In this document: positions 24,396-47,946 of the stretch, piece after piece
Position numbering within the stretch: the stretch's first letter is position 1
Layout: each line of letters starts with the position of its first letter
Assembly (NCBI GenBank): GCA_017409215.1
Contig: JAFQTD010000034.1
Span: 431-64,430, forward strand
Direction: 5' to 3'
Length of the DNA stretch: 64,000 nucleotides
Origin: Alphaproteobacteria bacterium
GTDB lineage: Bacteria; Pseudomonadota; Alphaproteobacteria; Rs-D84
Notes under the pieces: generated by a model
Told to the model about the DNA's origin: nothing
Seen by the model: the letters and a program-made list of their open reading frames with translations, nothing else
Database searches by the model: none
Position numbers and translations under genes: made by a program

Positions 24396-25685
24396 TTATT
24401 TTTTTATCGATTCGAATATTTTTTTTGCGCCCTTCCACAGAATATCTGTATTGTTTTTAGCTGTTTTATAGAAGTCGTCAGAAATATTTACATTAAATAT
24501 AGATTTAGAAAGTGCGGGAATCATTGTCATAAACATTGCTAAAAACAGCCCCATCAGTATAACTGTCACCAGACTGTCATTATTTAACATTAACGCATCC
24601 ATCAAGAATTTCGAATCGTTTTCAGTCAGTGCTTTTGCCAGTGCTGATTGTCCCTGCCAATCACCAAAAACAGCATTTATAAACATTGTTGCAAAGGCTA
24701 CAAATACACCTGTTATTGCCAATCCCAGTGTTCCATTAATTGCATTATCTATTATCTTAGAAATGGTTGTTCCTGCGCCTTGTGGAAAAATTTTCCAACC
24801 CTTGAACAGCCACGACAGCAACATAAATGGCAGCATAACCAAATCCATTGATAACTTTATAAATATTTCCAAGAAATATATGGGGATTGGCACCAGTGCT
24901 AAAAAGAACAGTACCAAAACCAGTGCGCCCGCAAACAGCAAAATTACGTTTGGAAATATCGGAATTTCCCACATTATTTTGTGCATATATTCATCATTAA
25001 ATGCCATATTTACCATTGTCCATCCGACCGCCATCCCCAGTCCAGTCATCTGGTGAACCCCAGACAATTCGCATGCCAGATTATGTCTTAACTTGGGCGA
25101 GAATGCCCCATAACTTGCGGCACGTTGGTCTATTGATGCCTGGTCTGCGATTGCGGTTGCAATAACACACGAATCGAAAGTGTCGTCATGTACGACCGCG
25201 CGATTCAAAGATAGTCCGACATTAAATATAGGTTGTATCGCGATATCGCTAATTAATCTGGGCAATGGTGCAAGCAAAACAATGGAAACGATTGCCAGCT
25301 TAACTATTTTGTTTGTAAAATCGCTGGCCTGTGACCAAGGGTTATCAAATTTTGAGTCCATCATATTGCTGGTCAGTGTCCAAGCAAACCAAATCGCCAT
25401 CAATATTGCAGCAAACGGAATAATAGTTTTTCCCAAGCTTGAATATATGCGTGGTAAAATATCTGACATTGTTGACATAATGCTGGCGAACATATCACAG
25501 GTCCAGCACGAACTAAAAAATTGATATGCTTCATTTGTGTTTACTGGAAATGCACTTCGGTATATTGAAAATCCAGCGATTGTGGTCAGGCCACCGACCA
25601 CCGCGACAACAACAGGTGCCCACGCTGCGGCTGTCAGTGGCAGGAATGATAAAAACGTTATCCAAAATTTTTTTAGTCGACTCAT
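24396..25685 (-). CDS. VirB6/TrbL-like polytopic membrane protein, paralogue 1
   Basis: 429 aa and multi-TM. N-terminal SCWTCDMF motif, a Cys pair in the central loop, the Trp-containing TM GMAVGWTMV and a Lys-rich tail WKGAKKIFESIKK. Paralogous to the four ORFs on the opposite strand. Confidence 0.6.
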   Translation of the reverse strand: MSRLKKFWITFLSFLPLTAAAWAPVVVAVVGGLTTIAGFSIYRSAFPVNTNEAYQFFSSCWTCDMFASIMSTMSDILPRIYSSLGKTIIPFAAILMAIWFAWTLTSNMMDSKFDNPWSQASDFTNKIVKLAIVSIVLLAPLPRLISDIAIQPIFNVGLSLNRAVVHDDTFDSCVIATAIADQASIDQRAASYGAFSPKLRHNLACELSGVHQMTGLGMAVGWTMVNMAFNDEYMHKIMWEIPIFPNVILLFAGALVLVLFFLALVPIPIYFLEIFIKLSMDLVMLPFMLLSWLFKGWKIFPQGAGTTISKIIDNAINGTLGLAITGVFVAFATMFINAVFGDWQGQSALAKALTENDSKFLMDALMLNNDSLVTVILMGLFLAMFMTMIPALSKSIFNVNISDDFYKTAKNNTDILWKGAKKIFESIKK

Positions 25686-25718
25686 TGTTTTTAATTATAC
25701 CATATTTTGCAATAAATG

Positions 25719-25727
25719 TGATATAAT
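25719..25727 (+). promoter_or_regulatory. Extended -10 promoter element (TGaTATAAT) for the plus-strand VirB6-like operon
   Basis: TG-n-TATAAT at 25719-25727, 24 nt upstream of the 25751 ATG, inside a 65-bp divergent intergenic gap. Confidence 0.4.
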
Positions 25728-25750
25728 TGAAAAGATAAAAAAATCAGAGA

Positions 25751-27010
25751 ATGTATTTATTGAAAAAAAACTTGTTTTTTGTCGCGGTGTTATTGGCATT
25801 ATTTATGCCAGATGTTGCGTTTGCTAATATCGTGGACAATTTGAATATTGCGCCATTTGTACCGATTGTATTAAATTCTATGATGATGATTGCAACACGT
25901 GGCTATGATTTTTTTGTTGGTAATGGTGACGGGATAATATATTTACTGATTTGGGGTTTTTTAGGGTTAACAACGGTATTGTATGTTGTAAAAATGTATT
26001 TTCCCAAAACGTGGCTGGGTTTTCTGGGGTTTTCTGGTGGTGGTGAATTGTATGAAGGCAAAATAACAGGATGGCAAATCGCTGAAAATTTATTACGTCC
26101 TGCGATGCGCGCGGCGATTGCGGCCATATTGTTATTACAGATACGACCAATGTTTTTAACCCACTGGTTGGTCAACCCGTTCTTAGAGCTGGGGTCGATA
26201 TACACCACTGCAATAACCAATACGATAAATGATTCTGGCACTGCGCCCAAGATAGAATGTCCATCGGATATATTATCTCAGGGCTGGATATCACAGGATT
26301 CGTGTGTTTTTCTGACACAACCTGTTTCAGATTTATCGCATGCAAACAATCAGATTATAAAACGTGGTTTTGATTATTTGACCAGTGGCATTCGCGGGCT
26401 TTTTTCACCTATACCTGCTGGTGGGCAAAATTTTATGAATGTTATAACTGGTGTGTTATTGATATTTACATTTGTCAGTTGTAATTTATTTATGGCGTTA
26501 TTGATTATTCAAGGGATTTTTAATTTCGGTATGCAGCTAATTTTATATCCATTTAGTGTTCTTACCTATGTTGTAAAATCCAGTGACAAGTGGCTTGATA
26601 TATGGCCTGCATTTGGCGGAATTACCAAGGCATTACAAGATTTAATTATCACGATGATTTCGTGTTCATTTATGTTATGTGTTGATTTAGCGATTGTTCG
26701 TGCATTATTTCATATGAACAAATCTATATATGTTGTTGCGGCAGATGGTTCTGCATACACTAATATGCCCCAGGCTGCAGATACTGCGATGGGTTTTGGC
26801 GAGCATTCTGTGACGTGGTTATCGGCAATATTGACTTTTTATTTGTTTTTCAAGTTATTTGATATGACGCAGAATCAATTAAAGTCCTATGTCGGCAGTG
26901 GTATGGACGGTTTGTATAATGCTGTAAAGTCTGACAGTAAACGTATGTTTGAAAAAGCAAAAAATATAAAGGACACATTTCAGTCTGTAAAGAAGTGGAT
27001 AAAAAAGTAA
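25751..27010 (+). CDS. VirB6/TrbL-like polytopic membrane protein, paralogue 2
   Basis: 419 aa. Signal-peptide-like N-terminus (LLALFMPDVAFA), loop Cys pair (IECPSD...DSCVF), multiple TMs and tail KDTFQSVKKWIKK. Confidence 0.55.
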   Translation: MYLLKKNLFFVAVLLALFMPDVAFANIVDNLNIAPFVPIVLNSMMMIATRGYDFFVGNGDGIIYLLIWGFLGLTTVLYVVKMYFPKTWLGFLGFSGGGELYEGKITGWQIAENLLRPAMRAAIAAILLLQIRPMFLTHWLVNPFLELGSIYTTAITNTINDSGTAPKIECPSDILSQGWISQDSCVFLTQPVSDLSHANNQIIKRGFDYLTSGIRGLFSPIPAGGQNFMNVITGVLLIFTFVSCNLFMALLIIQGIFNFGMQLILYPFSVLTYVVKSSDKWLDIWPAFGGITKALQDLIITMISCSFMLCVDLAIVRALFHMNKSIYVVAADGSAYTNMPQAADTAMGFGEHSVTWLSAILTFYLFFKLFDMTQNQLKSYVGSGMDGLYNAVKSDSKRMFEKAKNIKDTFQSVKKWIKK

Positions 27011-28207
27011 ATGGAAAATTTGATATCATCTTCAATAGATAATACGATTCAGTGTTGGGGCTGTTCTGTGTTTGACAGGTTGTTTCAGCTTGTTTCAACG
27101 GTCGCTACATCCATATATGATTATTTTAGTGCGATATGCATTGTGTTATTTCTTGCGGCATTTACTGTTTTGATAGTCAACGCGATATTTATAAATGGCA
27201 AAAACGATTTTTCTGACCCGTGGTACAAGGATTCCATTCAAAAAGTATTCATATCTGGCATTGTCGCATTGGGTATAATGGGGGCCGGGGTTATGTTTCC
27301 GCGGGTGCTGACCATGATTACGTTTGAACCTGTTGCGCAAATGACCACGACGTATACACAGTATATGTTGCGTCAGGATACAGCTGCAATCGAACAGCGT
27401 GTTTCCTATACCCCGGTTGAGATGCAAGACAATGGAATTTTTCGTCCACAACTGCGCGACAAAATAATTCTGTTAATGAAAACATCGATATCCCAGTTTC
27501 AATCTTATATAAAACTTGGTGTTGCTGTAATGGACAGTGCGTTTACGTGGAATGCATTGTTGGGGATTGGTGCATTACTTAAACATATTGTTTTGTTTTT
27601 TATAGGTCTGGCACTAACGATTGGTTTTTTTAGGTTGTTCTTTAAATACAGTTGTTATTTTATCGATGTTATAATTGCGATGGCTCTGTTTGCTTTTTTC
27701 TTTCCGTTATCTTTGGCGATGTTTCCGTTCCAAGGCGTAAAATCTGCGCCGAAATGGGCGCAAAATCTGGGGGGCAGTGTTGGTACCAAACAAATAAAAT
27801 CCTTGATAAATTCGATTGTCACATTGGGGGCTGTTGTTATCAGCTATACTGTAATAATGTTAATTCTTGCAAATTTCTTTATCGCGACGGACCAGAATAT
27901 AAATGATTTAATGACAGCAATAACCAGTGGCGAAATATTTGCATTTGATTTAAATACAGAAAACATAGCTGCGATGAGCTTAATGAGTTGTATTGTTTTG
28001 ATGTATGTGCTAAATTACATAGAATCCCAGATTCCACAGATATCAAAGACAATATTAAGCGCATTCAATGTAGAAGAAAAGAAGGATGCTGGCGAGAAGC
28101 TTGGCAACGATATGATGCGTCTGGGCGAACTGGCGCTGGGTAAAGTGTTGCAAACAGGCAAGATAATATTGTCTGGCGGTAAAGATAAAGAGGAAAGTGC
28201 TAAATAA
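27011..28207 (+). CDS. VirB6/TrbL-like polytopic membrane protein, paralogue 3
   Basis: 398 aa. The QCWGCSVFDRLFQLVSTVATSIYDYF N-terminal segment, then a TM, then GKNDFSDPW mirrors the VirB6 N-terminal layout. Its start abuts the previous stop. Confidence 0.6.
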   Translation: MENLISSSIDNTIQCWGCSVFDRLFQLVSTVATSIYDYFSAICIVLFLAAFTVLIVNAIFINGKNDFSDPWYKDSIQKVFISGIVALGIMGAGVMFPRVLTMITFEPVAQMTTTYTQYMLRQDTAAIEQRVSYTPVEMQDNGIFRPQLRDKIILLMKTSISQFQSYIKLGVAVMDSAFTWNALLGIGALLKHIVLFFIGLALTIGFFRLFFKYSCYFIDVIIAMALFAFFFPLSLAMFPFQGVKSAPKWAQNLGGSVGTKQIKSLINSIVTLGAVVISYTVIMLILANFFIATDQNINDLMTAITSGEIFAFDLNTENIAAMSLMSCIVLMYVLNYIESQIPQISKTILSAFNVEEKKDAGEKLGNDMMRLGELALGKVLQTGKIILSGGKDKEESAK

Positions 28208-29697
28208 TGTTAAAGGCGCAATTGATTATAGCCGCTGTTAAATTAATTATGGGTGCGATTGCGCTGGGTATTGGTATTTGGTATTTGTCGTCATCATTGG
28301 GTGGTGCGGCATTAACCTATACCAGTATGGATAATTTTTTAACATCAATTGGTGTTGAAAACGGTGATATTACGACATCTAATGGTTGTTTTTTGTGTCA
28401 GTATATATCGGATTTGTTCGCTGTGCTAAGCGATGCAACCGCGCGTTTTTGGGGTGTTATGGTTGATTGGGTATGGGTATTGGTTGCGCTGGGGTTTGGT
28501 GTTTTTATTTTAATTCATACCATGCAGTATATGTACGATAATGCTAAAAAGACCGCAACACTAGATGCCAAAGAGCATAAATTTGTATTCAAAGACTGGT
28601 TTGATAAAGTATGGAAACAGGGGGTTCGTGTTTTACTTGTTGGTGCATTAATTGGCGCGCTTGGTATGGGTGGGACAGATGCGCTAAAAACGATAACGCA
28701 AATAACTGTGACACCTGTATTATATGTTGGGTCTGAACTTTCGATGGCGGCAACCGGCGTGACCAGTGCCGCGCAATGTAATGCATTGGTCGCGATTGGC
28801 GAAGATGGCAACGACCAGATTTTTAATTCGGTTATTCGTCCATTTATGTGTGTTATTGGTAATTTGAACAGTGTTATGCTTGCTGGTGCTGCGGGTGGAT
28901 TTGCCTTGATGAACTATGCATGGTTGGGAATGGGTGGTGGTGTTATAACATGGTTTGCTGGTTTGGCGCTTGTTATACTGTTTCTGATAATTGGTTTTAA
29001 TTTATTTTTCCAGGTTTTATCGGTTTTCTTCAAGTTGATATTTTTTATAATATTTTTGCCTTTATTATTGGCTGCTGCAGCCTTTGAGGGTGTTTGGTCC
29101 AAGGTAAACTCTTTGGTAAATAATGGGATTAGTATGCTGGTTTCATCTGCGGTCAACATTATTGCGATAACGTTAAAGGTTGTTATTTTGTATGCAACGA
29201 TATCGTTTGCGGCCGACACGTATTTCCCTGGTCCGATGGATGGCTACAGTACGATTTTGCCACCGATGATGGGTACACACACAGAAAATCCTGATTCCCA
29301 AACCTTGTCCGTTATGAATGTTTTTTCAGAGTGCGAATCGATTTCAATGACAGAACAGGGGCTGGACAAAGAAATATTCAAGAATTGTTTTTCCGCCAAA
29401 CGCGCCCAGGTTGAACGTCAATATCCTGGTGCATTTGATTTTCTGCGCGATGGGTGGGATTTTCTGTTGTTAATGTTGTGTTTGTTCTTTTTATATAACT
29501 ATATCATCAGTCCCAAGATTGATAAAATATTCCCCAAGGGTTTCAAGTTAGTAAACTTCACAAATGGTAATGAAAAGAAATTCGAAACAACCGGTGAAGA
29601 ATTTGATTATGGTGCATGGGTTCACAGTCTGGGCAAAAAGGCGTGGGGAATTCCAAAACAGATTGCAGAGGCTGCAACAAAAAATATGTCAAACTAG
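28207..29697 (+). CDS. VirB6/TrbL-like polytopic membrane protein, paralogue 4
   Basis: 496 aa. GCFLCQYISDLF motif, loop Cys pair (AAQCNAL...PFMCVIG) and MNYAWLG. One-base TAATG overlap with paralogue 3. Confidence 0.6.
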   Translation: MLKAQLIIAAVKLIMGAIALGIGIWYLSSSLGGAALTYTSMDNFLTSIGVENGDITTSNGCFLCQYISDLFAVLSDATARFWGVMVDWVWVLVALGFGVFILIHTMQYMYDNAKKTATLDAKEHKFVFKDWFDKVWKQGVRVLLVGALIGALGMGGTDALKTITQITVTPVLYVGSELSMAATGVTSAAQCNALVAIGEDGNDQIFNSVIRPFMCVIGNLNSVMLAGAAGGFALMNYAWLGMGGGVITWFAGLALVILFLIIGFNLFFQVLSVFFKLIFFIIFLPLLLAAAAFEGVWSKVNSLVNNGISMLVSSAVNIIAITLKVVILYATISFAADTYFPGPMDGYSTILPPMMGTHTENPDSQTLSVMNVFSECESISMTEQGLDKEIFKNCFSAKRAQVERQYPGAFDFLRDGWDFLLLMLCLFFLYNYIISPKIDKIFPKGFKLVNFTNGNEKKFETTGEEFDYGAWVHSLGKKAWGIPKQIAEAATKNMSN

Positions 29698-29700
29698 GAA

Positions 29701-31047
29701 ATGAAAATGCGACAATGCATAAAACGTTTTTTATCTATTATTTGCATAACGCTTGTATCGTTGTGTTTTCTTGCGCCATCGTTTTGTGAAACAACAAATT
29801 TACCGTCTGGTGATATTGGTGATTATGGTGCATGGGCGACAGAAAACAATCGTAAAAAGTTTACGGCAGACCTATCGTCGGATATTGAAAATTTCCAAGG
29901 CGATTTTCAAAACAAAGTTGTTGCAGATTATGTCCCAGCAGAGGCAAAAATAGGCCTTGCCTTTATGAATGGTTTGTCATACATTGCGCAGGTTTTAAAT
30001 TCGTCATTAGTTCGCTTTATGATAGTGTTTATCATAGTTATGTATTTATTATGGGTCACATTCGAAGCGTATACTATAATAATAGGACAGGGTAAAGTTG
30101 AAGGTTTTGCATCAGGCAAAGGCACAATGTTCGAGATAGTAAAAAGAGGCGGTCTTGTACTTATGTGGATTGCTGTCCTAAAAGTTGGTCCCGCCCAGGC
30201 GTTTATGGTGGTTATGTCGCCTATTTTACAGGTTGCAAATTATATTTCTGATGGGATATTAACTGTTGCATCTGGTGCGATGGGGGTGGACGAATTGCCT
30301 GATACATGTGCGGCGATACGTGAATATGCGGCTGCGCATATTTCGGATAGTAATATATTAAGTGCATCTCAGGTCAGTGATATAATGTGCCTGCCATCAC
30401 GTTTGTCTGGTTTTTGTTATTCTGCGGTTGCTGTTGGCTGGCGATGGATGTTATACGGTATTGGTACCAGTGCGTTTTCGTTTTTGTGTGGTTTAATATT
30501 TGTTTGTGGTTTTGTGTATCTTACCTGGCGGTTTGTTTTTATTGCATTTGGTGTTATTGCCGACTTGTTCCTTGCGGTAATGTTATTGCCGTTTACAGCC
30601 TTGTCTGAAACGATTAAAGAAACATCGTACAAAGGAATAATAGGCAGATTTTATAACGGTTTTCTGGGCGTGTTCAATGTTTCTAATATAAACAAAGAAA
30701 TAGGTTCCTTAGAATCGCAGGTTGGCAGAATTATTGATGCTGCGCTTCATTTCATAGTTTTGTCTATTGTTGTCACACTGTGTTCTGCATTTTTGTCTCA
30801 GACAGTGACAGTAAATTCTATGAACGGGGTGCCACATTTTAACAGTCCTGGGTTCTTTATAACCATATTGATTTTAGCATTGGCGATTTATTTTGCCAAA
30901 CAAGCGGAAACTATTGCCACAGAACTGGGTGGTTCTATAAACACATCGATTGGTGATAATTTACGAAACGATGTAAAGGGACGTTGGAAATCGATCAAAA
31001 AGAACGCAGAAAAAATACGCGATATAATTCGTGACAGAAAAAAATAA
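29701..31047 (+). CDS. VirB6/TrbL-like polytopic membrane protein, paralogue 5
   Basis: 448 aa. Signal-like N-terminus, loop cysteines (DTCAAI...IMCLPSRLSGFCY), VAVGWRWMLYG and tail WKSIKKNAEKIRDIIRDRKK. Confidence 0.55.
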   Translation: MKMRQCIKRFLSIICITLVSLCFLAPSFCETTNLPSGDIGDYGAWATENNRKKFTADLSSDIENFQGDFQNKVVADYVPAEAKIGLAFMNGLSYIAQVLNSSLVRFMIVFIIVMYLLWVTFEAYTIIIGQGKVEGFASGKGTMFEIVKRGGLVLMWIAVLKVGPAQAFMVVMSPILQVANYISDGILTVASGAMGVDELPDTCAAIREYAAAHISDSNILSASQVSDIMCLPSRLSGFCYSAVAVGWRWMLYGIGTSAFSFLCGLIFVCGFVYLTWRFVFIAFGVIADLFLAVMLLPFTALSETIKETSYKGIIGRFYNGFLGVFNVSNINKEIGSLESQVGRIIDAALHFIVLSIVVTLCSAFLSQTVTVNSMNGVPHFNSPGFFITILILALAIYFAKQAETIATELGGSINTSIGDNLRNDVKGRWKSIKKNAEKIRDIIRDRKK

Positions 31048-38856: not shown

Positions 38857-39490
38857 TTCTCGTTCTTCATCATTCCCGCATCAGACCCCATACTTACACT
38901 TTCTCGTCATACCCGCGCATCGCCCCCCATCCTCACATATTCGTCATTCCCGCGCAGGCGGGAATCCATTGCCCCGCAGGGACATCTAAGACATTATCAT
39001 GCCCCCCCACACATCATCACTTTCGTACATCGCCCCCTACAAAAATTGCAAATTAAACCTTTGTCATCCTGTGGCTTTTTCGGGCCCCGCAAAAATTGCA
39101 AATTTTTAGCTCTTGTCATCCTGTGGCTTGACCACAGGACCCAGGTGTATTCCTTTTTTTAATCAGCATAACCTAGGTTCCATGGTCAAGCCATGGAATG
39201 ACAATTTTTTTTACAAAAAATTGTTAAAACAAGGAAAACAAAACCAACCGCACCCATCACCCACACCCCGAATTTTTAACAAAACCCGCCTGCAACACGA
39301 AGTTTTAACGAAGTGTTGTCATACCCGCACATCGCCCCCGCGCCCTCGTTCATCGTCATTCCCGCGCAGGCGGGAATCCATTGCCCCGCAGGGACATATT
39401 TTTGTGAAATTTTCACACCCTACAAAAATTACAAATTTTTGTGGGTGATTTTCAGGCGGGAATCCATTGCCCCGCAGGGACATTATTAAA
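38857..39490. repeat. Mosaic palindromic (MITE-like) repeat cluster B
   Basis: Three more copies of the 30-bp core (38956, 39368, 39454). It shares modules with cluster A: tcgtcattcccgcgcaggcggg, caaaaattgcaaattttt, tcttgtcatcctgtggcttgaccacaggacccaggtgtattcc and ccgaatttttaacaaaacccgc. It also has ttccatggtcaagccatggaa. Confidence 0.85.
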
Positions 39491-40419: not shown

Positions 40420-40455
40420 AAACACAGCCGCCCAAATGGACGGCTTTGTTTTTAT
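40420..40455. terminator. Bidirectional terminator between convergent ORFs
   Basis: Stem agccg/cggct with flanking A- and T-runs (aaaaaacac...tttgttttt). Confidence 0.4.
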
Positions 40456-41789
40456 CGTTTATTTGTTGTGTATCTTTTAACAATTTGCTGTTGTGCCTTG
40501 TTTAGCGGTTTTTTTGCCTGTAATTTCTCTACGGTTTTCTTTTTATCAACAGGCGCAACCCCGTATTCATTATATAGTCTTGCGATATCATCTGCAATCA
40601 CCGCGCCACTGCGCGCATTGCCAGACTTTATACGGTCCGCGGCATCGGCTAAATTTTTGCGTTTTTCCACTTTTGTTTTTTTGATATCTTGTTTTGGTGA
40701 TGGAAAAACTTCATAACAATTCTTTAAACCAAATGTTTCCTGCATATTCTTTTTCATAGCAGGGTCTTTTGTCACTTCATGCAAGGCCCGAACAAAATCA
40801 ACCACTTCTTTTGACTTGCTAAACTTGCTATAGTTATGTTTAACAGAATCATATAACAATTTAATTATATCTTGATTGTAATAATCTGTGTTCATCCTTA
40901 GCTGTTTCAAGAATGACGATATATCGCGTTTTTCTGCGATAATTTTCTCGATTCTTTGTTTAATAACCAATGCGTTTTCAAAGTATTGAACTGCGCCTGG
41001 GCCATATATTTTTGCAATTTGTTCGTCAGACAATGCATTCAGCGCTGTTTGGTCTGCCTTATCAAAGAAAATTTCAAAATTCTTTGTTTTTTTATAATAT
41101 TCCCACTTCAACCTATCTGCCAAGACTGTCACAGCCGCCCGCATAACGATATTATAGAAGTTCTTTTTCGTAAAATCATTATCTTCTGGGTTGTTCTTAA
41201 ATTCCTTGTCTGATTGTTCGCGTCCATGTGCGTGCCATTCTGAATGCGAGATATTAAAATTATGTTCCTTTGCGAATTTCAGCATTTCAGTGCGTTTTTC
41301 TTTTGGTAACGCGTTAATAGCATCTTGAATATTTTCTCGGTCAACAAGGCGTAAAAAATCAAAGACAGCTGTCCATCGTGGATATTTCATTCCAGTCAGC
41401 ATAGCTTCAACACCAACAGGCGTAAAATTTGACATTTTCTGTGTTATATTATAGTAATCGTTCGCTATGTGCTGTTTTTTCCAAAAGCCTGCGATTTCCT
41501 GAAAATATTTCTCAATTTTTGCATCTGTACTTTTATACAAATGTGGGAAATCTAATTTATGCCTCATTTTTGCTGGGGCCATATTGGTATCAATTTTAAT
41601 AGTTTTTAAATTATCATCCACAAACTTATCAATATTTGCAAACAAGTTAGATTGATTTTGTCCATCGACACCATTTATTGTGTTTTCAAAAAAATCATAA
41701 TGTTGATTTCCATCTGTCACCGATATGCCCACTAATTCACCTTCGTTATTTCCGAAATAAGCGCGTCGTTTTGTGAAAGTATATCTCAT
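40452..41789 (-). CDS. Hypothetical protein (445 aa) with a Lys-rich C-terminal tail
   Basis: Clean ORF with an aggag RBS and no recognisable motif. C-terminus: KKKTVEKLQAKKPLNKAQQQIVKRYTTNKR. Confidence 0.6.
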   Translation of the reverse strand: MRYTFTKRRAYFGNNEGELVGISVTDGNQHYDFFENTINGVDGQNQSNLFANIDKFVDDNLKTIKIDTNMAPAKMRHKLDFPHLYKSTDAKIEKYFQEIAGFWKKQHIANDYYNITQKMSNFTPVGVEAMLTGMKYPRWTAVFDFLRLVDRENIQDAINALPKEKRTEMLKFAKEHNFNISHSEWHAHGREQSDKEFKNNPEDNDFTKKNFYNIVMRAAVTVLADRLKWEYYKKTKNFEIFFDKADQTALNALSDEQIAKIYGPGAVQYFENALVIKQRIEKIIAEKRDISSFLKQLRMNTDYYNQDIIKLLYDSVKHNYSKFSKSKEVVDFVRALHEVTKDPAMKKNMQETFGLKNCYEVFPSPKQDIKKTKVEKRKNLADAADRIKSGNARSGAVIADDIARLYNEYGVAPVDKKKTVEKLQAKKPLNKAQQQIVKRYTTNKR

Positions 41790-41848: not shown

Positions 41849-42208
41849 TTATTGTGTGCGGTTAGTATGCTTTGATAATTCTTTATACAGTGCATCTGGG
41901 GTTTGTATCCGCCAATTTCGTAGCCCTATCATATTCTTCGCCAGTTGTACACAGCTAATCATATATCGTATATTCGTACAATCGGCATTACAGTTGTCCA
42001 AGACTATGAACACCCAACCATATTTTGACAAGATATTTAAATCCCGCAATTTTAGCGGGATTTTAACAATTTTATTAAATTTAACAAATTGCCACATTTC
42101 TAAGTCTGATTTGCGCACCAGTATCGGTGCTGTATGTACAAAATTTCTGCAAAATAAGCGTGGCAATATTTTTGATGTATTTCTGCAAAAGCCGATAATA
42201 ATCATCAT
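41849..42208 (-). CDS. Hypothetical protein (119 aa)
   Basis: A ggag RBS lies directly after the upstream ORF stop, so it is probably co-transcribed with the 42226 ORF. Confidence 0.45.
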   Translation of the reverse strand: MMIIIGFCRNTSKILPRLFCRNFVHTAPILVRKSDLEMWQFVKFNKIVKIPLKLRDLNILSKYGWVFIVLDNCNADCTNIRYMISCVQLAKNMIGLRNWRIQTPDALYKELSKHTNRTQ

Positions 42209-42225
42209 TTACTCCATAAACAAGT

Positions 42226-42567
42226 TTAATCAATCCATCCCCGTTCTTGTGCTGCAACCCCCAGCACATTCATTGCGTGTGCCCAAATTGTGACAGCATA
42301 ATTTTCACACCATATATGTTGATGGGGTGCGCGTTTTTTATCGCCAAATTTTTTCATTACCGACAAATCATCATCGGTTAATTTTCCACACAAATACAGT
42401 TTTGTAATCAGTGTTTCTACATCCAGAATTTCACAAGGTCTGCGTGTTTGGCTGTGCCTTCTGTATGAAAAATCATTTCGCACAGATTTAGAATACAAGA
42501 ACCAGAACCATAATTGTTCTGGGGATTGGAATTTTTCAGTTGCATAGTTAGCCAAGCTTTGTGTCAT
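42226..42567 (-). CDS. Hypothetical protein (113 aa from MTQSL)
   Basis: An aaggag RBS lies 9 nt upstream of the ATG at 42567. The ORF-track start at 42609 is probably read-in. Confidence 0.5.
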   Translation of the reverse strand: MTQSLANYATEKFQSPEQLWFWFLYSKSVRNDFSYRRHSQTRRPCEILDVETLITKLYLCGKLTDDDLSVMKKFGDKKRAPHQHIWCENYAVTIWAHAMNVLGVAAQERGWID

Positions 42568-42847
42568 TTTTTCTTTCTCCTTTGTTTTTTTTATTTTGTT
42601 TTTGGTCATCGATATATATACCCAAAGAAAAGATTCTTGTAAAATATTACAACCAGCGGTTGAATTGCGAATCGAAAATCCGATTCAAAACGCATATTTA
42701 TAAAATGGTACGCGAATCGGCTTTTATTCCTAAAACGGGTATTACATCAGCTTATTTAATAAAAAAAAGTGCGCGATAATGCGCACTGAAAATAAAATAT
42801 CAATATACTAATTTTCGTTTATCTCCTTTGCTTAATCGTTTGTTGTC

Positions 42848-42874
42848 TAAAAACAAACCCGCCAATGGCGGGTT
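42848..42874 (-). terminator. Terminator after virB10
   Basis: Stem aacccgcc/ggcgggtt (42856-42874), followed on the minus strand by tgttttt. Confidence 0.6.
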
Positions 42875-42889
42875 GTAATTTCAAGACGT

Positions 42890-45370
42890 TTATAACAACG
42901 GCGGGAAGCAGTCGCCACCGGCCTCTGGACAGCAATTGAAACCCATTTCACCCATATCTGTATAGATTTCACCTGCACAGCAACCATTTTCATCTGGTAA
43001 ACTGCCATCCATACAGGTCAGTGCCGTATCTTCTGCAGCTGGCGCTTCTGTCACAGGGTTTTCGTATGGATTAACAACAGTGCCGTCATCGTTATATTGT
43101 ATCCCCAGAATTTCTTCGTTAAACTGTTGTGTTCCTTCGCCACCCAGTTCTTGAATCTTTTTCTGATACTGTTTCGTTTGGTCTTCAGTATAGGTCTTAT
43201 ATTGTAAAGCTTTCTTTGATTGATAGCTTTGCGATTGGCACCAGAACAGCAGTGTTTGATAAGAATAACCACCACATGCCGCATTGTTAGCATTAGTATT
43301 TTTACGGCATTCTTCAATTGGTCGGCACTGTCCCGATACTTCATCGCACTCACAAAAGTTCAATGTTTGAAACGCTCTCGATTGTCCCATCCATTCCGGT
43401 GATTCATAATCAATTGGGTCGAAAGCATGCATTCCTTTGCCCGTTGAACGTCGCGATCCGTTATCGTATCCCAAGGCGCATTTTTTCCCACTATTTGTAT
43501 CGTCACCACATGATGCGACCAAATCCACAGGTGAATATACGGTTATACGTGTACCTGCGGCAATTGTAAATGGCGGAACCGAACTGTTCATCATATCCAG
43601 CATTAATTTTTGTGCAACCGCATTCCACGCGCTAATAATTTCAGACTTTGCTAACTCAGATGAACGCACTGTTCCACTTTGAACAACTGTATTGTTATCC
43701 AGGTCAATCTGGTTAACAAACGCATCCGCCACTGGATTAATCAGGTTAATCGCCGCAGGAACAAAAGAAGTCAACATTGGCATAAAGAATTGTTCCAGAT
43801 AGTCTGTACTGCCACGTCCCAGAACACCTTCACGTCCTTGTGCGTCACCAGAAAAAGGATCGTTATTTCCTTCTCCTGTAAAATTATACTCCATCCCATT
43901 TGGTAAGACGAACTGGTACCATTTTATCGACATACGCCCGATTGATGCGTATGGCCCGGGCAACTTGCCTGTCACATACCCCAGCATTAATGTCCCAGCC
44001 GGTATAATAACATTGCGTCCTGAATCAGAATAAACGTTTCTATCAACAGTTGCGCGCACTGGCAAGAAACTGTTTTCTAACGCTTCGGGGTCTGCACGCA
44101 CCTCTGACACAATTGTTGCAGGAATTGGTTTATATTGACGTAATATGAATTGTCTGTCGTATGGTCGTGTTGGTCTTAATCTGTCTTCTCCAGACCCCAG
44201 ATATTCGTCTACATCAATTGGCGCTGCTGGCTTTACAATATCTTGACCTGATGATAACTCACGCCCCATTGTTCCAGTAGGTGTTGAAGGGGTATCGCTT
44301 TGTTTTGCACGAATAACTTGTTTTATTGCGGGTCTCATTTTTAATTCAGGCAACACACCACTATTTACCACCGACAAACCGATATGTTCTGCATCTGTTC
44401 CGATTTTTTTACCACTGTCATCTGTGATGATACCATTGTCTGGATTATAAGTCCCTTCGGCATTGGTACAGTCCTTGTCCGCAAAAGAATGATAATAATA
44501 CGCACCACCCGATGGCTTTACCCACCCGATTTGTTTGCCTGATGTTCCGTATGCAGGGAATGCAAAATCTGAACATCCATCAGGAATCACAATTTCAATA
44601 TCTTTCTTTGCTTTTTTTGCAGGCTTTTTAATTGCCGGTGCCAATGCATTAACAGATTTTTTGACGTTTTCCTTTACAGGCTCTGGTTCTGGCTCTGGTT
44701 CTGGTTCTTCCACAGGTTCTGGTTCAAAATCAAGTTCTTCTTCTGGCTCTTGATTTACGAATGGCTCTTCCTCTGGTTCTTCCGCTGGTTCAGGTTTTGG
44801 TTCAGGCTCTGACACAGACATTGGCACAGGGGTTGGTTCTTTGATTGGTGCTTGCGCCCCCAGTGTCAAAACGATTTTAGATTCTTTTTTCATTGTTTGT
44901 GGTTCTTTTACGTCATGCCATTCGACGAACAAAGAAACGTTTGTGACGGGCTGAACAGTGGTTGGTTCATATTTCAAAAATATTTTGCACCCAATTGTTT
45001 TATTAATGGGCTGGATTACAGTGCAATTCTGCTGTACGTTTAACCCGTTAATTTCTGTATAATTATTAACCGCCAAGACATTCACATCCGCACTTGCAGT
45101 TATACTGATTTCTTGATTTTTTGTGTCACCAACCAAGACTTCAGCCCAGTTGATGATATCAGGTTCGATTTTTATTTCTGCTGTTGCCTTTTCTACATCA
45201 TTCAAGTTGGCTTTTTTATTGCTATCATCGCCAAACAATAACATCAATAATATCAACACCAACACAAACGCAGTCAGCATCAACAGCCATTGCACGCGCT
45301 TTGGCATTCCCTGTGTCAAACCCGCCAGTTTTGTTTTCAGAACATTAAACTTTTCTTTTATCTTTGCCAT
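42890..45370 (-). CDS. virB10: VirB10/TrbI-family T4SS protein, enlarged (826 aa)
   Basis: N-terminal TM, Pro/Glu-rich linker (PEPKPEPAEEPEEEP...EPEPEPEPEPV) and a TrbI core (VIIPAGTLMLGYVTGK...IKWYQFVLPNGMEYNF...DAQGREGVLGR...TIAAGTRITVYSPVDL). It follows virB9. Confidence 0.8.
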   Translation of the reverse strand: MAKIKEKFNVLKTKLAGLTQGMPKRVQWLLMLTAFVLVLILLMLLFGDDSNKKANLNDVEKATAEIKIEPDIINWAEVLVGDTKNQEISITASADVNVLAVNNYTEINGLNVQQNCTVIQPINKTIGCKIFLKYEPTTVQPVTNVSLFVEWHDVKEPQTMKKESKIVLTLGAQAPIKEPTPVPMSVSEPEPKPEPAEEPEEEPFVNQEPEEELDFEPEPVEEPEPEPEPEPVKENVKKSVNALAPAIKKPAKKAKKDIEIVIPDGCSDFAFPAYGTSGKQIGWVKPSGGAYYYHSFADKDCTNAEGTYNPDNGIITDDSGKKIGTDAEHIGLSVVNSGVLPELKMRPAIKQVIRAKQSDTPSTPTGTMGRELSSGQDIVKPAAPIDVDEYLGSGEDRLRPTRPYDRQFILRQYKPIPATIVSEVRADPEALENSFLPVRATVDRNVYSDSGRNVIIPAGTLMLGYVTGKLPGPYASIGRMSIKWYQFVLPNGMEYNFTGEGNNDPFSGDAQGREGVLGRGSTDYLEQFFMPMLTSFVPAAINLINPVADAFVNQIDLDNNTVVQSGTVRSSELAKSEIISAWNAVAQKLMLDMMNSSVPPFTIAAGTRITVYSPVDLVASCGDDTNSGKKCALGYDNGSRRSTGKGMHAFDPIDYESPEWMGQSRAFQTLNFCECDEVSGQCRPIEECRKNTNANNAACGGYSYQTLLFWCQSQSYQSKKALQYKTYTEDQTKQYQKKIQELGGEGTQQFNEEILGIQYNDDGTVVNPYENPVTEAPAAEDTALTCMDGSLPDENGCCAGEIYTDMGEMGFNCCPEAGGDCFPPLL

Positions 45371-45405
45371 CGGATAATCTGCTTTGTTTGTGTTGTTGAT
45401 ATTGT

Positions 45406-46950
45406 TTATTGTAATCTAACGACACTGCAACTTGTGCCACTAAATTTCAGCATTTTATCGCACAGTTTTTGCGCCGTATCAATACTTGCAAACGGCCCGA
45501 TACGCAGGCGATACATTCTGGCGCTGGTTGATGCGGCACCCAAATCACCAACCCCCTGTGTATCAACGGAATAGAATACCATATCTTCGTATGGTGTTAA
45601 CAACCCCTGACCATCTTCACCACTAAATTTAGCCAGCAACATTGCCCAATAATCATCCAGTGCCTTAACGGACGTATCTGATTTTAATTCCACTGCGACC
45701 CCAACTTGGTTGCTGGAAATCAGTGGTATATTTGTCTGTGGCAGGTATGCGCCCGCAGTATTGCGTTGTTGTGGCAACATATTAACGACACTGCCCGACG
45801 ATTGTACTGTATTCTGTGGCATGCCATAAAATCCCGCTGGTGTATAATACCCCGCGCCTGTCATTGGGTTAACAGTTTGTGTATTTCCCATAAATACAGG
45901 TGACCCTGTATAATTTGTTCCCATACTCATTGCGGCCATACTGTCGGTGTATGCGATATTATTCAAAGATTGACCAGACAACATACTTTGTGCGACGTTG
46001 GCCTCTGCCAGTGCCATAACAGATGCAGTATCGGCAATCAAGAATGGTTTTTCACGTTTCTTGATACAGACGATACGCTGACCGCTGCGTAAAACCATAT
46101 CTCCGACCGCCTCGACAATTAACAGTCTGCCGTCTTCCCCGTCTGTGCGGAATCCAACAGGGGATTCGCCACCTTCGACCAACAGGGAAACCACAGGTCT
46201 TTGTGTCATCGAAATAACCTTGTCACCAAAGTCAATATATGTAAAGATTCTGTCGCGCCATACGCGTTCTGGTGCGATAACATAATCGTCTGGGTTTGGA
46301 ACAAAGATATCTAAATCAAATCTAAATTCAGATGGGTCGATTTTCATAGACTTAATCCAACCGTAATCTTCGCCATCTACCCCGACAACATTTGATGTGG
46401 TTGGCGCTGCCTTGAATATAGAACGTGCCCCCCCAGATGTTTTGCCAGTTGTTCCCATTGCGACTGGCAGACTGCCATTCCCATCCAGCACAACATCGAC
46501 CTGAGAATACATAATTTCGCTGGCATTACTTGGGTGTGCCTGTAAATAAAAGATGTATTTATTCCCAGATTTGCCGGTCACAATCATATTTGTATCAGAA
46601 CCCTGATTGCCTTGCTCGGGCGAAATAAACATTGTTCTATCGCCTTGTGTTGTGTCAATCTGGAATTGTCCAGTATCACCTACGATTGCATCCTCAATCT
46701 GTTCGCCGTTTGGCAACGTGACCATTGTCACCATTCCATTGCGCAATTTTAATGGTAATACACTGCCTGGGGACCAAGCCAATTGTGCATAGCCTGGTTT
46801 TATACTGCCGTCAACCATATTGGCATTTGGATTATCCCAGGCCTCTTGTATCCCATATGGCTCATTATCATTAGAATACGCAGGTAATGAAACCAGTCCC
46901 ATCAAACAAAAAACAGAAACGCTAAACTTTAATTTTCTTAAAAAAACCAT
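45406..46950 (-). CDS. virB9: VirB9/CagX-family T4SS protein with a C-terminal SPOR-like module (514 aa)
   Basis: Signal peptide (LVSLPAYS). VirB9 N-domain (LKLRNGMVTMVTLPNGEQIEDAIVGDTGQFQI) and C-domain (DRIFTYIDFGD...PVVSLLVEGGESPVGFRTDG..LLIVEAVGDMVLRSGQRIVCIKK). Tail MYRLRIGPFASIDTAQKLCDKM. Confidence 0.8.
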   Translation of the reverse strand: MVFLRKLKFSVSVFCLMGLVSLPAYSNDNEPYGIQEAWDNPNANMVDGSIKPGYAQLAWSPGSVLPLKLRNGMVTMVTLPNGEQIEDAIVGDTGQFQIDTTQGDRTMFISPEQGNQGSDTNMIVTGKSGNKYIFYLQAHPSNASEIMYSQVDVVLDGNGSLPVAMGTTGKTSGGARSIFKAAPTTSNVVGVDGEDYGWIKSMKIDPSEFRFDLDIFVPNPDDYVIAPERVWRDRIFTYIDFGDKVISMTQRPVVSLLVEGGESPVGFRTDGEDGRLLIVEAVGDMVLRSGQRIVCIKKREKPFLIADTASVMALAEANVAQSMLSGQSLNNIAYTDSMAAMSMGTNYTGSPVFMGNTQTVNPMTGAGYYTPAGFYGMPQNTVQSSGSVVNMLPQQRNTAGAYLPQTNIPLISSNQVGVAVELKSDTSVKALDDYWAMLLAKFSGEDGQGLLTPYEDMVFYSVDTQGVGDLGAASTSARMYRLRIGPFASIDTAQKLCDKMLKFSGTSCSVVRLQ

Positions 46951-46973
46951 TTTTTCATCCTTATATGTTTCTT

Positions 46974-47651
46974 TTAGTTGATTTTGTAAAAAACGCTATC
47001 AAGTGGATCGCCATCACCTTCGACGATTTTGTATTCACTGACACGCAACCCCAATGGGTTATCGATACGTCCTGCCGTATCTATCTCTGTATCACCGATT
47101 TCTTTTAATTTGATTTGAACGGTATAGTTTTTGGCGCTGTTTGTTAAAACGTCCCCATTAATATCGGTACAAAAATAGCGAAAGTTGATTCTGTATGCAT
47201 TTTCAGACGCAAAGTACATCATTTTATCTTCATACGACACATGGCACGAGAAGTCAAAATCTGACGTCGTTCCCATAATTCCCTTGAACATTTCGGTATT
47301 GATAAAGTCCGCATAAACATCTTCTGCTGACATTGCGCGCACTTTACCATTCCAGATATTCTGCATAGTTTCTGTGTTGTTAAACACTTCGTTCCTGTGT
47401 CTAATATATTCACGAATAAAGGCGCGTTTGTACAATTCAATATTTTTATCATTGTTTGCTGTTGACATTTCAACCAGCCTTACTGTCTTAGCACTAGATG
47501 GTTCTGTCAATAAAAAGAATATCTGTGGTCTGTTCAGCGGGAAAGTTTTTATCAGCGCAATCAGCAAACCAACCAGCACAACAATTGCAGTTGCGCACAC
47601 AAAGACCAGCAGTCTTGATACTAAAATCGGCGGTTCTACGCGTTTTGACAC
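46974..47651 (-). CDS. virB8: VirB8-family T4SS protein
   Basis: 225 aa with a single N-terminal TM, an NTF2-like periplasmic part with FIREYIRHRN, and the C-terminal NPLGLRVSEYKI motif (compare NPLGFQVTSY). First gene of the operon. Confidence 0.8.
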   Translation of the reverse strand: MSKRVEPPILVSRLLVFVCATAIVVLVGLLIALIKTFPLNRPQIFFLLTEPSSAKTVRLVEMSTANNDKNIELYKRAFIREYIRHRNEVFNNTETMQNIWNGKVRAMSAEDVYADFINTEMFKGIMGTTSDFDFSCHVSYEDKMMYFASENAYRINFRYFCTDINGDVLTNSAKNYTVQIKLKEIGDTEIDTAGRIDNPLGLRVSEYKIVEGDGDPLDSVFYKIN

Positions 47652-47872
47652 AAAATCCTTCCTATCAATTTAAAATGATTGTAGAAAAAAATATATAACT
47701 TATGCAAGAAAAAACTAATATAAAAGTTGCAAAAACGACCGATTAAATTTTTCTTGCACAAAACAAGCAAAAATATTATAATATTTCCGCTTGATTTTTT
47801 GTATTTGTGTGCTATTCTTTTGCGGACTGTATATAATGGCATGCGGTACGTCGGGCTAAAAAAAGCAGCCAC

Positions 47873-47946
47873 AGGGGCATAGTTCAACGGTAGAATATCG
47901 GTCTCCAAAACCGCGGATGAGGGTTCGATTCCTTCTGCCCCTGCCA
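47873..47946 (+). tRNA. tRNA-Trp (anticodon CCA)
   Basis: Acceptor AGGGGCA/TGCCCCT, anticodon loop CTCCAAA, T-arm GAGGG TTCGATT CCTTC, 3' GCCA. It sits in the classical position upstream of secE-nusG. Confidence 0.9.

Follow-up and report, generated by a model that had tools for sequence, protein, structure and literature searches.

A window of 64,000 nucleotides (positions 431 to 64,430 of contig JAFQTD010000034.1, assembly GCA_017409215.1) from an alphaproteobacterium of the GTDB order Rs-D84 contains on its minus strand the adjacent and co-oriented genes virB8, virB9 and virB10. Very probably, these genes form a tricistronic operon for the core complex of a chromosomal and vertically inherited type IV secretion system (T4SS) of the VirB/VirD4 type, whose remaining parts are located in at least six other islets of the genome and whose likely function is the delivery of effectors to, or contact with, other cells. 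The genome is a metagenome-assembled genome (MAG) of 1.13 Mb in 37 contigs (95.7% complete, 3.7% contamination), with the window on contig C30. NCBI lists the organism as Alphaproteobacteria incertae sedis and by current taxonomy it does not belong to the Rickettsiales; its named related loci and the tree of VirB4 placed it among Candidatus Enterousia excrementavium, scatequi and onthequi, a genus that GTDB assigns to the order Rs-D84 (PMC12306168). Thirty relatives from six families of this order, 22 of them high-quality genomes, were searched. The location of the features is given in Table 1.

Table 1. Features of the operon, its surroundings and the other T4SS islets. Positions refer to the window unless preceded by a contig number.
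Feature	Position	Strand	Description
virB8	46974-47651	-	225 aa, GTG start; Pfam PF04335
virB9	45406-46950	-	514 aa; Pfam CagX and SPOR
virB10	42890-45370	-	826 aa; Pfam TrbI
virB8 ribosome-binding site	47657-47662	-	GGAAGG, 5 nt ahead of the GTG start
Predicted virB8 operon promoter	47678-47707	-	T-run, -35 TTGCAT (47707-47702), 18-nt spacer, -10 TACAAT (47683-47678)
Predicted intrinsic terminator	42846-42874	-	AACCCGCC-ATT-GGCGGGTT, then TGTTTTT
Second terminator-like hairpin	42760-42787	-	AGTGCGC-ATTATC-GCGCACT, then T8; partly conserved in genus alignment
tRNA-Trp	47873-47946	+	Heads the divergent cluster tRNA-Trp-secE-nusG-rplKAJL-rpoBC
virB4	C6:9771-12203		810 aa; PF03135 49.9 bits; GPTGGGKT and IMIDET
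virB3 (pair with virB4)	C6:9771-12550		Directly upstream of virB4; PF05101 28.1 bits (cut-off 23.9)
virB11	C5:2063-3058		331 aa; T2SSE 78 bits; GATATGKT and His box GHDHFYTTIHA
virD4	C32:46577-48835		752 aa; PF02534 113.7 bits; APAGTGKT and FVLDEM
VirB7 lipoprotein	C18:148798-148944		48 aa, lipobox LAGC, motif '...EPVGVG...ELKLSPCAC'
VirB2 candidate	C20:12095-12460		Signal peptide, two hydrophobic helices; 15-20 bits (cut-off 27.9)
VirB6-like array	24396-31047		Five paralogous polytopic membrane proteins; separate islet
Control region of next transcription unit	42610-42720	-	Four GANTC sites and palindrome TTCAACC-N3-GGTTGTA
orf113	42226-42567	-	Predicted helical cytoplasmic protein without known family
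orf119	41849-42208	-	Partner gene; found behind orf113 in each of the 8 genus genomes with orf113
orf445	40452-41789	-	Strain-specific; sole true orphan among the three ORFs after virB10

Identity and Expression Signals of the virB8-virB9-virB10 Operon

The three genes are separated by only 23 nt (virB8/virB9) and 35 nt (virB9/virB10), and their coordinates agreed exactly with those of a preliminary description of this DNA, which had also recognized in them the signatures of VirB8, VirB9/CagX and VirB10/TrbI. All three assignments exceeded the Pfam gathering thresholds: VirB8 reached 38.6 bits against a cut-off of 23.2 (PF04335; E 1.3e-9, residues 13-210), VirB9 82.4 bits against 34.2 for CagX, and VirB10 51.5 bits against 35 for TrbI. 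The NCBIfam names agreed for the three proteins at scores far under the strict equivalog cut-offs (VirB10 obtained 46.3 bits with T4SS_VirB10), and the matches to solved core-complex structures were marginal (E about 0.003-0.18). Judged from these scores, VirB8, VirB9 and VirB10 are genuine yet very divergent members of their families.

VirB8 presents an N-terminal transmembrane helix and an NPLG motif close to the C-terminus, the layout of a bitopic inner-membrane/periplasmic assembly factor, and the profile of its orthologues across the order matched both VirB8 copies of a sister lineage (described below) with 99.6% (hhalign). In VirB9 a signal peptide is followed by the CagX/VirB9 domain (residues 56-298), a Q/N/G-rich linker and a C-terminal SPOR domain (~476-512), which is a peptidoglycan-binding domain and scored 25.1 bits (Pfam cut-off 21); the protein matched over its full length (residues 1-514) in all families of the order. 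VirB10 consists of an N-terminal transmembrane anchor, an extra beta-rich module, a Pro/Glu-rich linker, the TrbI barrel (412-615) and a Cys-rich C-terminal extension of 208 aa. Both VirB9 and VirB10 are single-copy in the genome. The final ~45 residues of VirB10 (42890-43030, minus strand) form a six-Cys motif, C.DG..PD.NGCC.GE...DMG..GFNCCP..GGDCFPP, which also closes three other open reading frames (ORFs) of this genome (C13:26319-26783, C13:25838-26452, and C36:50881-53409) and many ORFs of the relatives.

The operon would be transcribed from its own promoter of the sigma-70 type, divergently from tRNA-Trp and secE, and transcription would stop at an intrinsic terminator. The promoter motif (ttttt-aCTTGCa-N17/18-tcTACAAT), about 20-30 nt upstream of the ribosome-binding site, was kept in 10/10 aligned genomes of the genus. 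The divergent spacer between virB8 and tRNA-Trp measures 220 nt, and in the genus alignment the tRNA-Trp cluster displayed its own conserved promoter (~47760-47800) with the same consensus and the opposite direction; the synteny of this cluster beside the operon was maintained in 9/9 loci of the genus. A hairpin at 47793..47764 was considered as a leader terminator and rejected, as it overlaps this conserved tRNA-Trp/secE promoter. Neither a promoter nor a terminator consensus was found at the virB8/virB9 and virB9/virB10 junctions. The rho-independent terminator previously noticed after virB10 was corroborated at 42874..42846: it begins 15 nt past the virB10 stop codon, has an 8-bp stem with six G-C pairs and a T-run, and folds with -20.5 kcal/mol (z = -5.26), none of 200 shuffled sequences being as good. 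A hairpin with a T-run directly 3' of the virB10 stop codon occurred in 10/10 genomes of the genus, with differing sequences, and in one genome of family f2. From these signals, the operon is predicted to end at virB10.

The start codon of virB8 was GTG or TTG in 10/10 Enterousia genomes (position 47651 of the window plus nine relatives), which suggests that low initiation of translation is a conserved trait of the operon's first gene; virB9 has the ribosome-binding site AAGGA 8 nt ahead of its ATG.

Remaining Components of the Secretion System

Neither virB11 nor virD4 is present within the window. The preliminary description had deduced that the ATPase genes must be elsewhere or absent, and they were located on three other contigs, with VirB4 encoded on C6, VirB11 on C5 and VirD4 on C32; the three genes are intact and their products full-length, with intact Walker A and B motifs. 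Profile searches over the whole genome, which had been recommended for the missing parts, yielded VirB3, VirB4, VirB11 and VirD4, and for VirB2 just a sub-threshold candidate. The gene upstream of virB11 (C5:58-1041), cut by the contig end, contains about 11 near-identical 'F.GCSGLTSIPENLFAGISGAPA' repeats of the BspA-type leucine-rich class.

A hidden Markov model (HMM) built from the small lipoprotein encoded between the two virB8 genes of the sister lineage matched a single ORF in the genome (C18:148798-148944, E 4.8e-13). Immediately downstream of this VirB7 gene are two VirB8-shaped ORFs, with 234 and 218 aa (islet C18:148798-150330). The first of them obtained 20.1 bits on Pfam VirB8, just under the cut-off, and the second matched the sister-lineage VirB8 with 87.6% (hhalign) and was present in 18/18 genomes of the genus. 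Second copies of virB8 and virB9, of the kind known from rvh systems, had been proposed as something to look for: VirB8-like copies do exist beside VirB7, whereas neither a second VirB9 nor a second VirB4 was found in the genome. The islet on C18 is situated directly downstream of bamA, and annotation would miss it.

The VirB6-like array, already described as lying apart from the operon, extends to 31047, which leaves 11.8 kb to the virB10 stop codon; PLD, galE, the gene of a secreted protein of 729 aa, rnj and an acyl carrier protein-like gene are situated in this interval. No match to the Pfam family TrbL was obtained with the genome or the five paralogues, nor any match in a profile search of the PDB. 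The profile of the five paralogues aligned with that of 19 genuine TrbL/VirB6 sequences, drawn from 17 other alphaproteobacterial genomes, with 95.4% probability (hhalign, E 1.8e-8, 189 columns). An orthologue occurred in 18/18 genomes of the genus, 13-60 kb from virB10 or on a different contig; the HMM of the five paralogues did not match the membrane genes between virB4 and virB8 of the sister lineage.

Of the features of a P-type (type IVA) VirB/VirD4 system, the following are present: VirB4, VirB8, VirB9 and VirB10 together, VirB11 and VirD4, VirB6, and VirB3 and VirB7; for VirB2 there is the sub-threshold candidate, and VirB5 was not found. By gene content the T4SS is predicted to be essentially complete, spread over about seven islets.

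Conservation and Descent

Each of the proteins VirB10, VirB11, VirD4 and VirB4 occurred in 22/22 of the high-quality genomes, always as a single open frame in single copy. Identity within the genus was highest for VirB11 (86-91%), followed by VirB4 (73-82%), VirD4 (57-82%), VirB9 (65-83%), VirB10 (40-58%), and VirB8 (33-49%). These values fit tightly constrained cytoplasmic motors combined with fast-evolving periplasmic and surface parts, the pattern expected from a machine in use and not from one in decay.

In the VirB4 tree the order Rs-D84 was monophyletic (SH-aLRT 100), and its sister group (99) consisted of further gut MAG lineages with small genomes, which belong to at least eight other GTDB families. 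Since the tree mirrors the taxonomy, the system appears to have descended vertically and not to have been acquired by recent transfer.

Arrangement of the Genes in Related Genomes

Within the genus the gene order was rplA-rplK-nusG-secE-tRNA-Trp and, divergently, virB8-virB9-virB10, the terminator and orf113-orf119 (8/9 genomes, the remaining one being without the two small genes). Other T4SS parts never adjoined the operon: virB11 and virD4 were on other contigs or, in near-closed relatives, 50-115 kb away. In the two-contig genome G003, for instance, virB4 and virB6 are located at 21 and 124 kb of the first contig, and virB11, virB8-virB10 and virD4 at 176, 275-280, and 392 kb of the second. 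VirB4, VirB10, VirB11 and VirD4 were unlinked in the order except in one genus, and the positions of the islets varied between families. In two genomes of genus g3, virB11 adjoins the virB8-virB10 operon in convergent orientation. Families f3, f4 and f5 (loci L022-L025 and L027) have no hairpin terminator after virB10 and present instead a fourth operon gene, 14-24 nt after virB10, whose conserved product of 119-135 aa has a signal peptide and the signature 'EGFMSAFEEIPLQ...PLVVLFSLKP'; no homologue was found in the genome studied here, and the gene may encode a lineage-specific accessory subunit of the T4SS.

In the sister lineage, with genomes of 1.3-1.7 Mb, a single co-oriented cluster of ~24 kb was found, with virD4 elsewhere. 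It begins with a virB2-like gene, virB3, virB4 and three or four membrane or secreted genes, and continues with virB8, virB7, virB8, virB9, a gene for a 1225-aa beta-flower repeat protein, virB10 (~1400 aa) and virB11. The VirB9 of this lineage gave a weak SPOR match of 19.3 bits, under the cut-off of 21. In the sister MAG CAYPFN010000007.1 (L112:1847-5524 and L112:5502-9731) the VirB10 of ~1400 aa carries beta-flower (PF21785/PF21784) and DUF3659 repeats, and the gene of a paralogous 1225-aa repeat protein is inserted between virB9 and virB10; in size, this recalls the giant VirB10 proteins of the CagY type.

In the next relatives further out virB10, virB11 and virD4 are contiguous. This linkage, together with the cluster of the sister lineage, suggests by parsimony that the interruption downstream of virB10 is derived and was probably reached stepwise. 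A graded series of break-up is available, from the contiguous cluster through the separation of virD4 to full scattering, and lends itself to studying how a machine of many proteins maintains stoichiometric expression without operon linkage.

Proposed Function and Alternative Explanations

The products of all islets would assemble into one envelope-spanning translocon, to which the operon would contribute the periplasmic assembly factor VirB8 and the outer-membrane core complex. VirD4 would recruit the substrates and VirB4 and VirB11 would supply the energy; VirB6 and VirB8 would make up the inner-membrane channel, and VirB7, VirB9 and VirB10 an outer-membrane cap tied to the peptidoglycan through the SPOR domain of VirB9. 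The bacteria of Rs-D84/Enterousia, uncultured and widespread in the gut, have genomes of ~0.7-1.1 Mb, without most biosynthetic pathways and standard transporters, and are suspected to live off other cells (PMC12306168). Because of this proposed lifestyle, the presence of VirD4 and the failure to find a relaxase of PF03432 or PF08751, the most likely role of the machine is to deliver protein effectors to a host or partner cell, or to mediate contact with it, and not to serve conjugation.

Several points weigh against this explanation. VirB2 is represented by a weak, sub-threshold candidate (15-20 bits), VirB5 gave no match in the genome search even at E ≤ 1, and a dedicated VirB1 was not found either; the negative result for the relaxase refers to the two families searched (PF03432 and PF08751). 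The genome is a MAG of 37 contigs with 95.7% completeness and 3.7% contamination, and virB11 lies on a contig of 7.8 kb whose assignment to the genome relies on the presence of the gene in all relatives. VirB8, VirB9 and VirB10 diverge strongly from the solved structures, so that details of the core complex may differ, and co-transcription and termination are predictions from the sequence.

Alternatively, although this seems unlikely, the machine could be a ComB-like system for the uptake or release of DNA instead of an effector translocator. The best solved-structure match of VirB10 was ComB10, and T4SS_ComB10 was its second match in NCBIfam. The 'KLSPC' of the VirB7 candidate recalls the [KI]KSP motif present in ComB7 and in Rickettsia VirB7 (Gillespie et al., PMC2653234), a resemblance and not a test, and a bacterium unable to make nucleotides could gain from importing DNA (PMC12306168). 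The similarity to the ComB10 structure was weak (E 0.003), however, and VirD4 and VirB11 are present and highly conserved here. ComB systems are not known to have either.

Quite improbable is also a conjugation or DNA-transfer machine belonging to an integrated mobile element (integrative and conjugative element), the pieces of which would have been scattered by rearrangement. VirB/VirD4 systems that bear VirD4 are typically conjugative, and the relaxase search covered two families in an incomplete genome; nevertheless, neither PF03432 nor PF08751 was detected. In every member of the genus the operon lies between the tRNA-Trp-secE-nusG-rpl genes and conserved chromosomal genes, without a plasmid-like or integrase context in the flanks, and all genomes of the order have the parts in single copy, with a VirB4 tree that follows the taxonomy.

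It could further be argued that the unlinked VirB11- and VirD4-like ATPases serve another machine and that the virB8-virB10 core works with VirB4 alone. VirB11 and VirD4 were never found in one operon with virB8-virB10 in the genus, and a second ATPase of the T2SSE family (544 aa) is located on C32, 6 kb from virD4. This possibility appears very improbable, as the genome has only one VirB11-type and one VirD4-type gene and lacks a further set of structural genes for a T4SS. Moreover, the VirB11 orthologue (57-59% identity) directly follows virB10 in the sister lineage, and virB11 adjoins the operon in two genomes of genus g3.

Of the two readings offered by the preliminary description, a fragmented T4SS or a remnant, the former stood. 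A decaying operon left over from a T4SS that is out of function after the loss of its motors, for which the absence of virB11 and virD4 from the operon, the strong divergence of the three proteins and the marked reduction of the genome to 1.13 Mb could be adduced, can practically be discarded, because all three ATPases have intact Walker motifs over their full length and the components are open frames in 22/22 high-quality genomes from six families, to which the high identity of VirB11 (86-91% within the genus) and the conserved promoter and terminator are added. For annotation, this means that in these lineages a virB10 without virB11 and virD4 beside it does not indicate decay.

The effector-delivering or contact-making T4SS proposed here, complete in every good genome of the order, is a concrete candidate for the interaction machinery of these bacteria. 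A broader proposal, which we advance tentatively and consider somewhat short of probable, is that an ancient, order-wide T4SS of about seven islets, with a VirB9 tethered to the peptidoglycan through SPOR and an enlarged, Cys-tailed VirB10, is their main machine for attachment to partner or host cells and for the exploitation of these cells. If true, the archipelago of the rvh type, regarded as characteristic of intracellular Rickettsiales, would extend to extracellular gut symbionts or parasites. The public records label even VirB4 as 'hypothetical protein', the words 'secretion' and 'VirB' are absent from the genome analysis of Rs-D84/Enterousia (PMC12306168), and no link between Rs-D84 or RF32 and type IV secretion was found in the searchable literature.

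Downstream Region and Other Features of the Window

The three ORFs that follow virB10 had been taken for orphans, which held true for orf445 and not for orf113 and orf119, both conserved across the genus. The 127-aa ORF described previously corresponds to the 113-aa protein of orf113, read from Met15. This gene was directly downstream of virB10 in 8/9 genomes of the genus, with 58-67% identity, and orf119 showed 36-53% identity; both are single-copy and genus-specific, one of the nine genomes being without the pair. No Pfam, NCBIfam or PHROG match was obtained for either protein, and the AlphaFold2 model of orf113 (helical, pLDDT 70) had no Foldseek match in the PDB at E < 3. For orf445, no tblastn match was found in any relative locus examined, nor a second copy in the genome, nor a significant match in Pfam, NCBIfam or PHROG.

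The control region ahead of orf113 was conserved in 9/9 genomes of the genus and contains GANTC sites, the methylation motif of CcrM, at 42718-14, 42686-82, 42673-69, and 42636-32. Its core, GGTTGTA-N3-TTTTACA, has no other match in the 1.13-Mb genome, and the looser pattern TTCAACC-N3-GGTTGTA has one further match, on C18. A multi-copy leader RNA was considered for this region and rejected, since the core motif occurs once in the genome. The region may act as an operator, or as a promoter responsive to the cell cycle or the methylation state. The tie of orf113 and orf119 to the T4SS is positional and a regulatory role for them would be speculation; if the broader proposal above were true, the islets would be subject to co-ordinated regulation in trans, and the pair behind its GANTC-rich operator would be a candidate regulator.

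In the repeat cluster that flanks rnj, a palindromic repeat (39093-39224) resembled the Rfam family WsnRNA46 (Wolbachia small RNA 46) on both strands, with sub-threshold scores of 46.7 and 37.2 bits (cut-off 65.3).

Comparison with Known Systems

The named related loci were from gut MAGs and one Paracaedibacteraceae MAG, with no Rickettsia, Wolbachia or Ehrlichia among them. With the archetypal VirB/VirD4 system of Agrobacterium tumefaciens and the minimised conjugative systems pKM101 Tra and R388 Trw (PDB 7o3j, 6gyb), the system shares the component set VirB3, VirB4, VirB6 to VirB11 and VirD4, as well as the order virB8-virB9-virB10 and the Pfam families. These systems are encoded in one plasmid operon of 11-12 genes together with VirB1, VirB5 and a relaxase, whereas the genes studied here are chromosomal and dispersed and these three components were not found.

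The rvh system of Rickettsia and Anaplasmataceae (PMC2653234) is likewise a chromosomal, vertically inherited P-type T4SS of small-genome alphaproteobacteria, arranged as an archipelago of islets, with five tandem VirB6, without VirB5, with a small VirB7 lipoprotein beside a VirB8 paralogue and with extra VirB8-like copies; in the genome studied here no relaxase of the two families searched was found. The preliminary description had set the operon against the rvh order virB8-virB9-virB10-virB11-virD4, which agrees with islet C of Rickettsia, virB9a-virB8a-virB7-virB8b-virB9b-virB10-virB11-virD4 (PMC2653234). The sister lineage mirrors this islet in its order virB8-virB7-virB8-virB9-...-virB10-virB11, and in the present genome it is broken into virB8-virB9-virB10, virB7 with the two virB8-like genes, virB11, and virD4. 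Islet A of rvh (virB3-virB4-virB6a-e) is also split, into virB3-virB4 and the five virB6 genes, which results in about seven islets vs. five. Moreover, rvh duplicates virB4, virB8 and virB9, whereas VirB4 and VirB9 are single here as well as in the relatives, and only VirB8-like extras occur; VirB9 has a SPOR domain and VirB10 additional N- and C-terminal modules, and the host belongs to an extracellular gut lineage (order Rs-D84) and not to the Rickettsiales. By gene content and layout the system can be considered rvh-like, although two features that define rvh, the virB8-virB9-virB10-virB11-virD4 islet and the duplication of VirB4 and VirB9, are absent. It would represent a more fragmented variant, of which no description was found in the searchable literature, and the lost linkage of virB10, virB11 and virD4 would be an rvh-like archipelago carried further than in Rickettsia.

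The closest VirB4 clade was that of the sister gut MAG cluster (CAYPFN010000007.1, 'uncultured Azospirillaceae bacterium'). Both systems share a homologous VirB7 lipoprotein, an enlarged VirB10, an unlinked virD4 and possibly, as the match in the sister was sub-threshold, a SPOR domain in VirB9; the same parts that in Enterousia occupy separate islets are gathered in the sister lineage in one cluster of ~24 kb.

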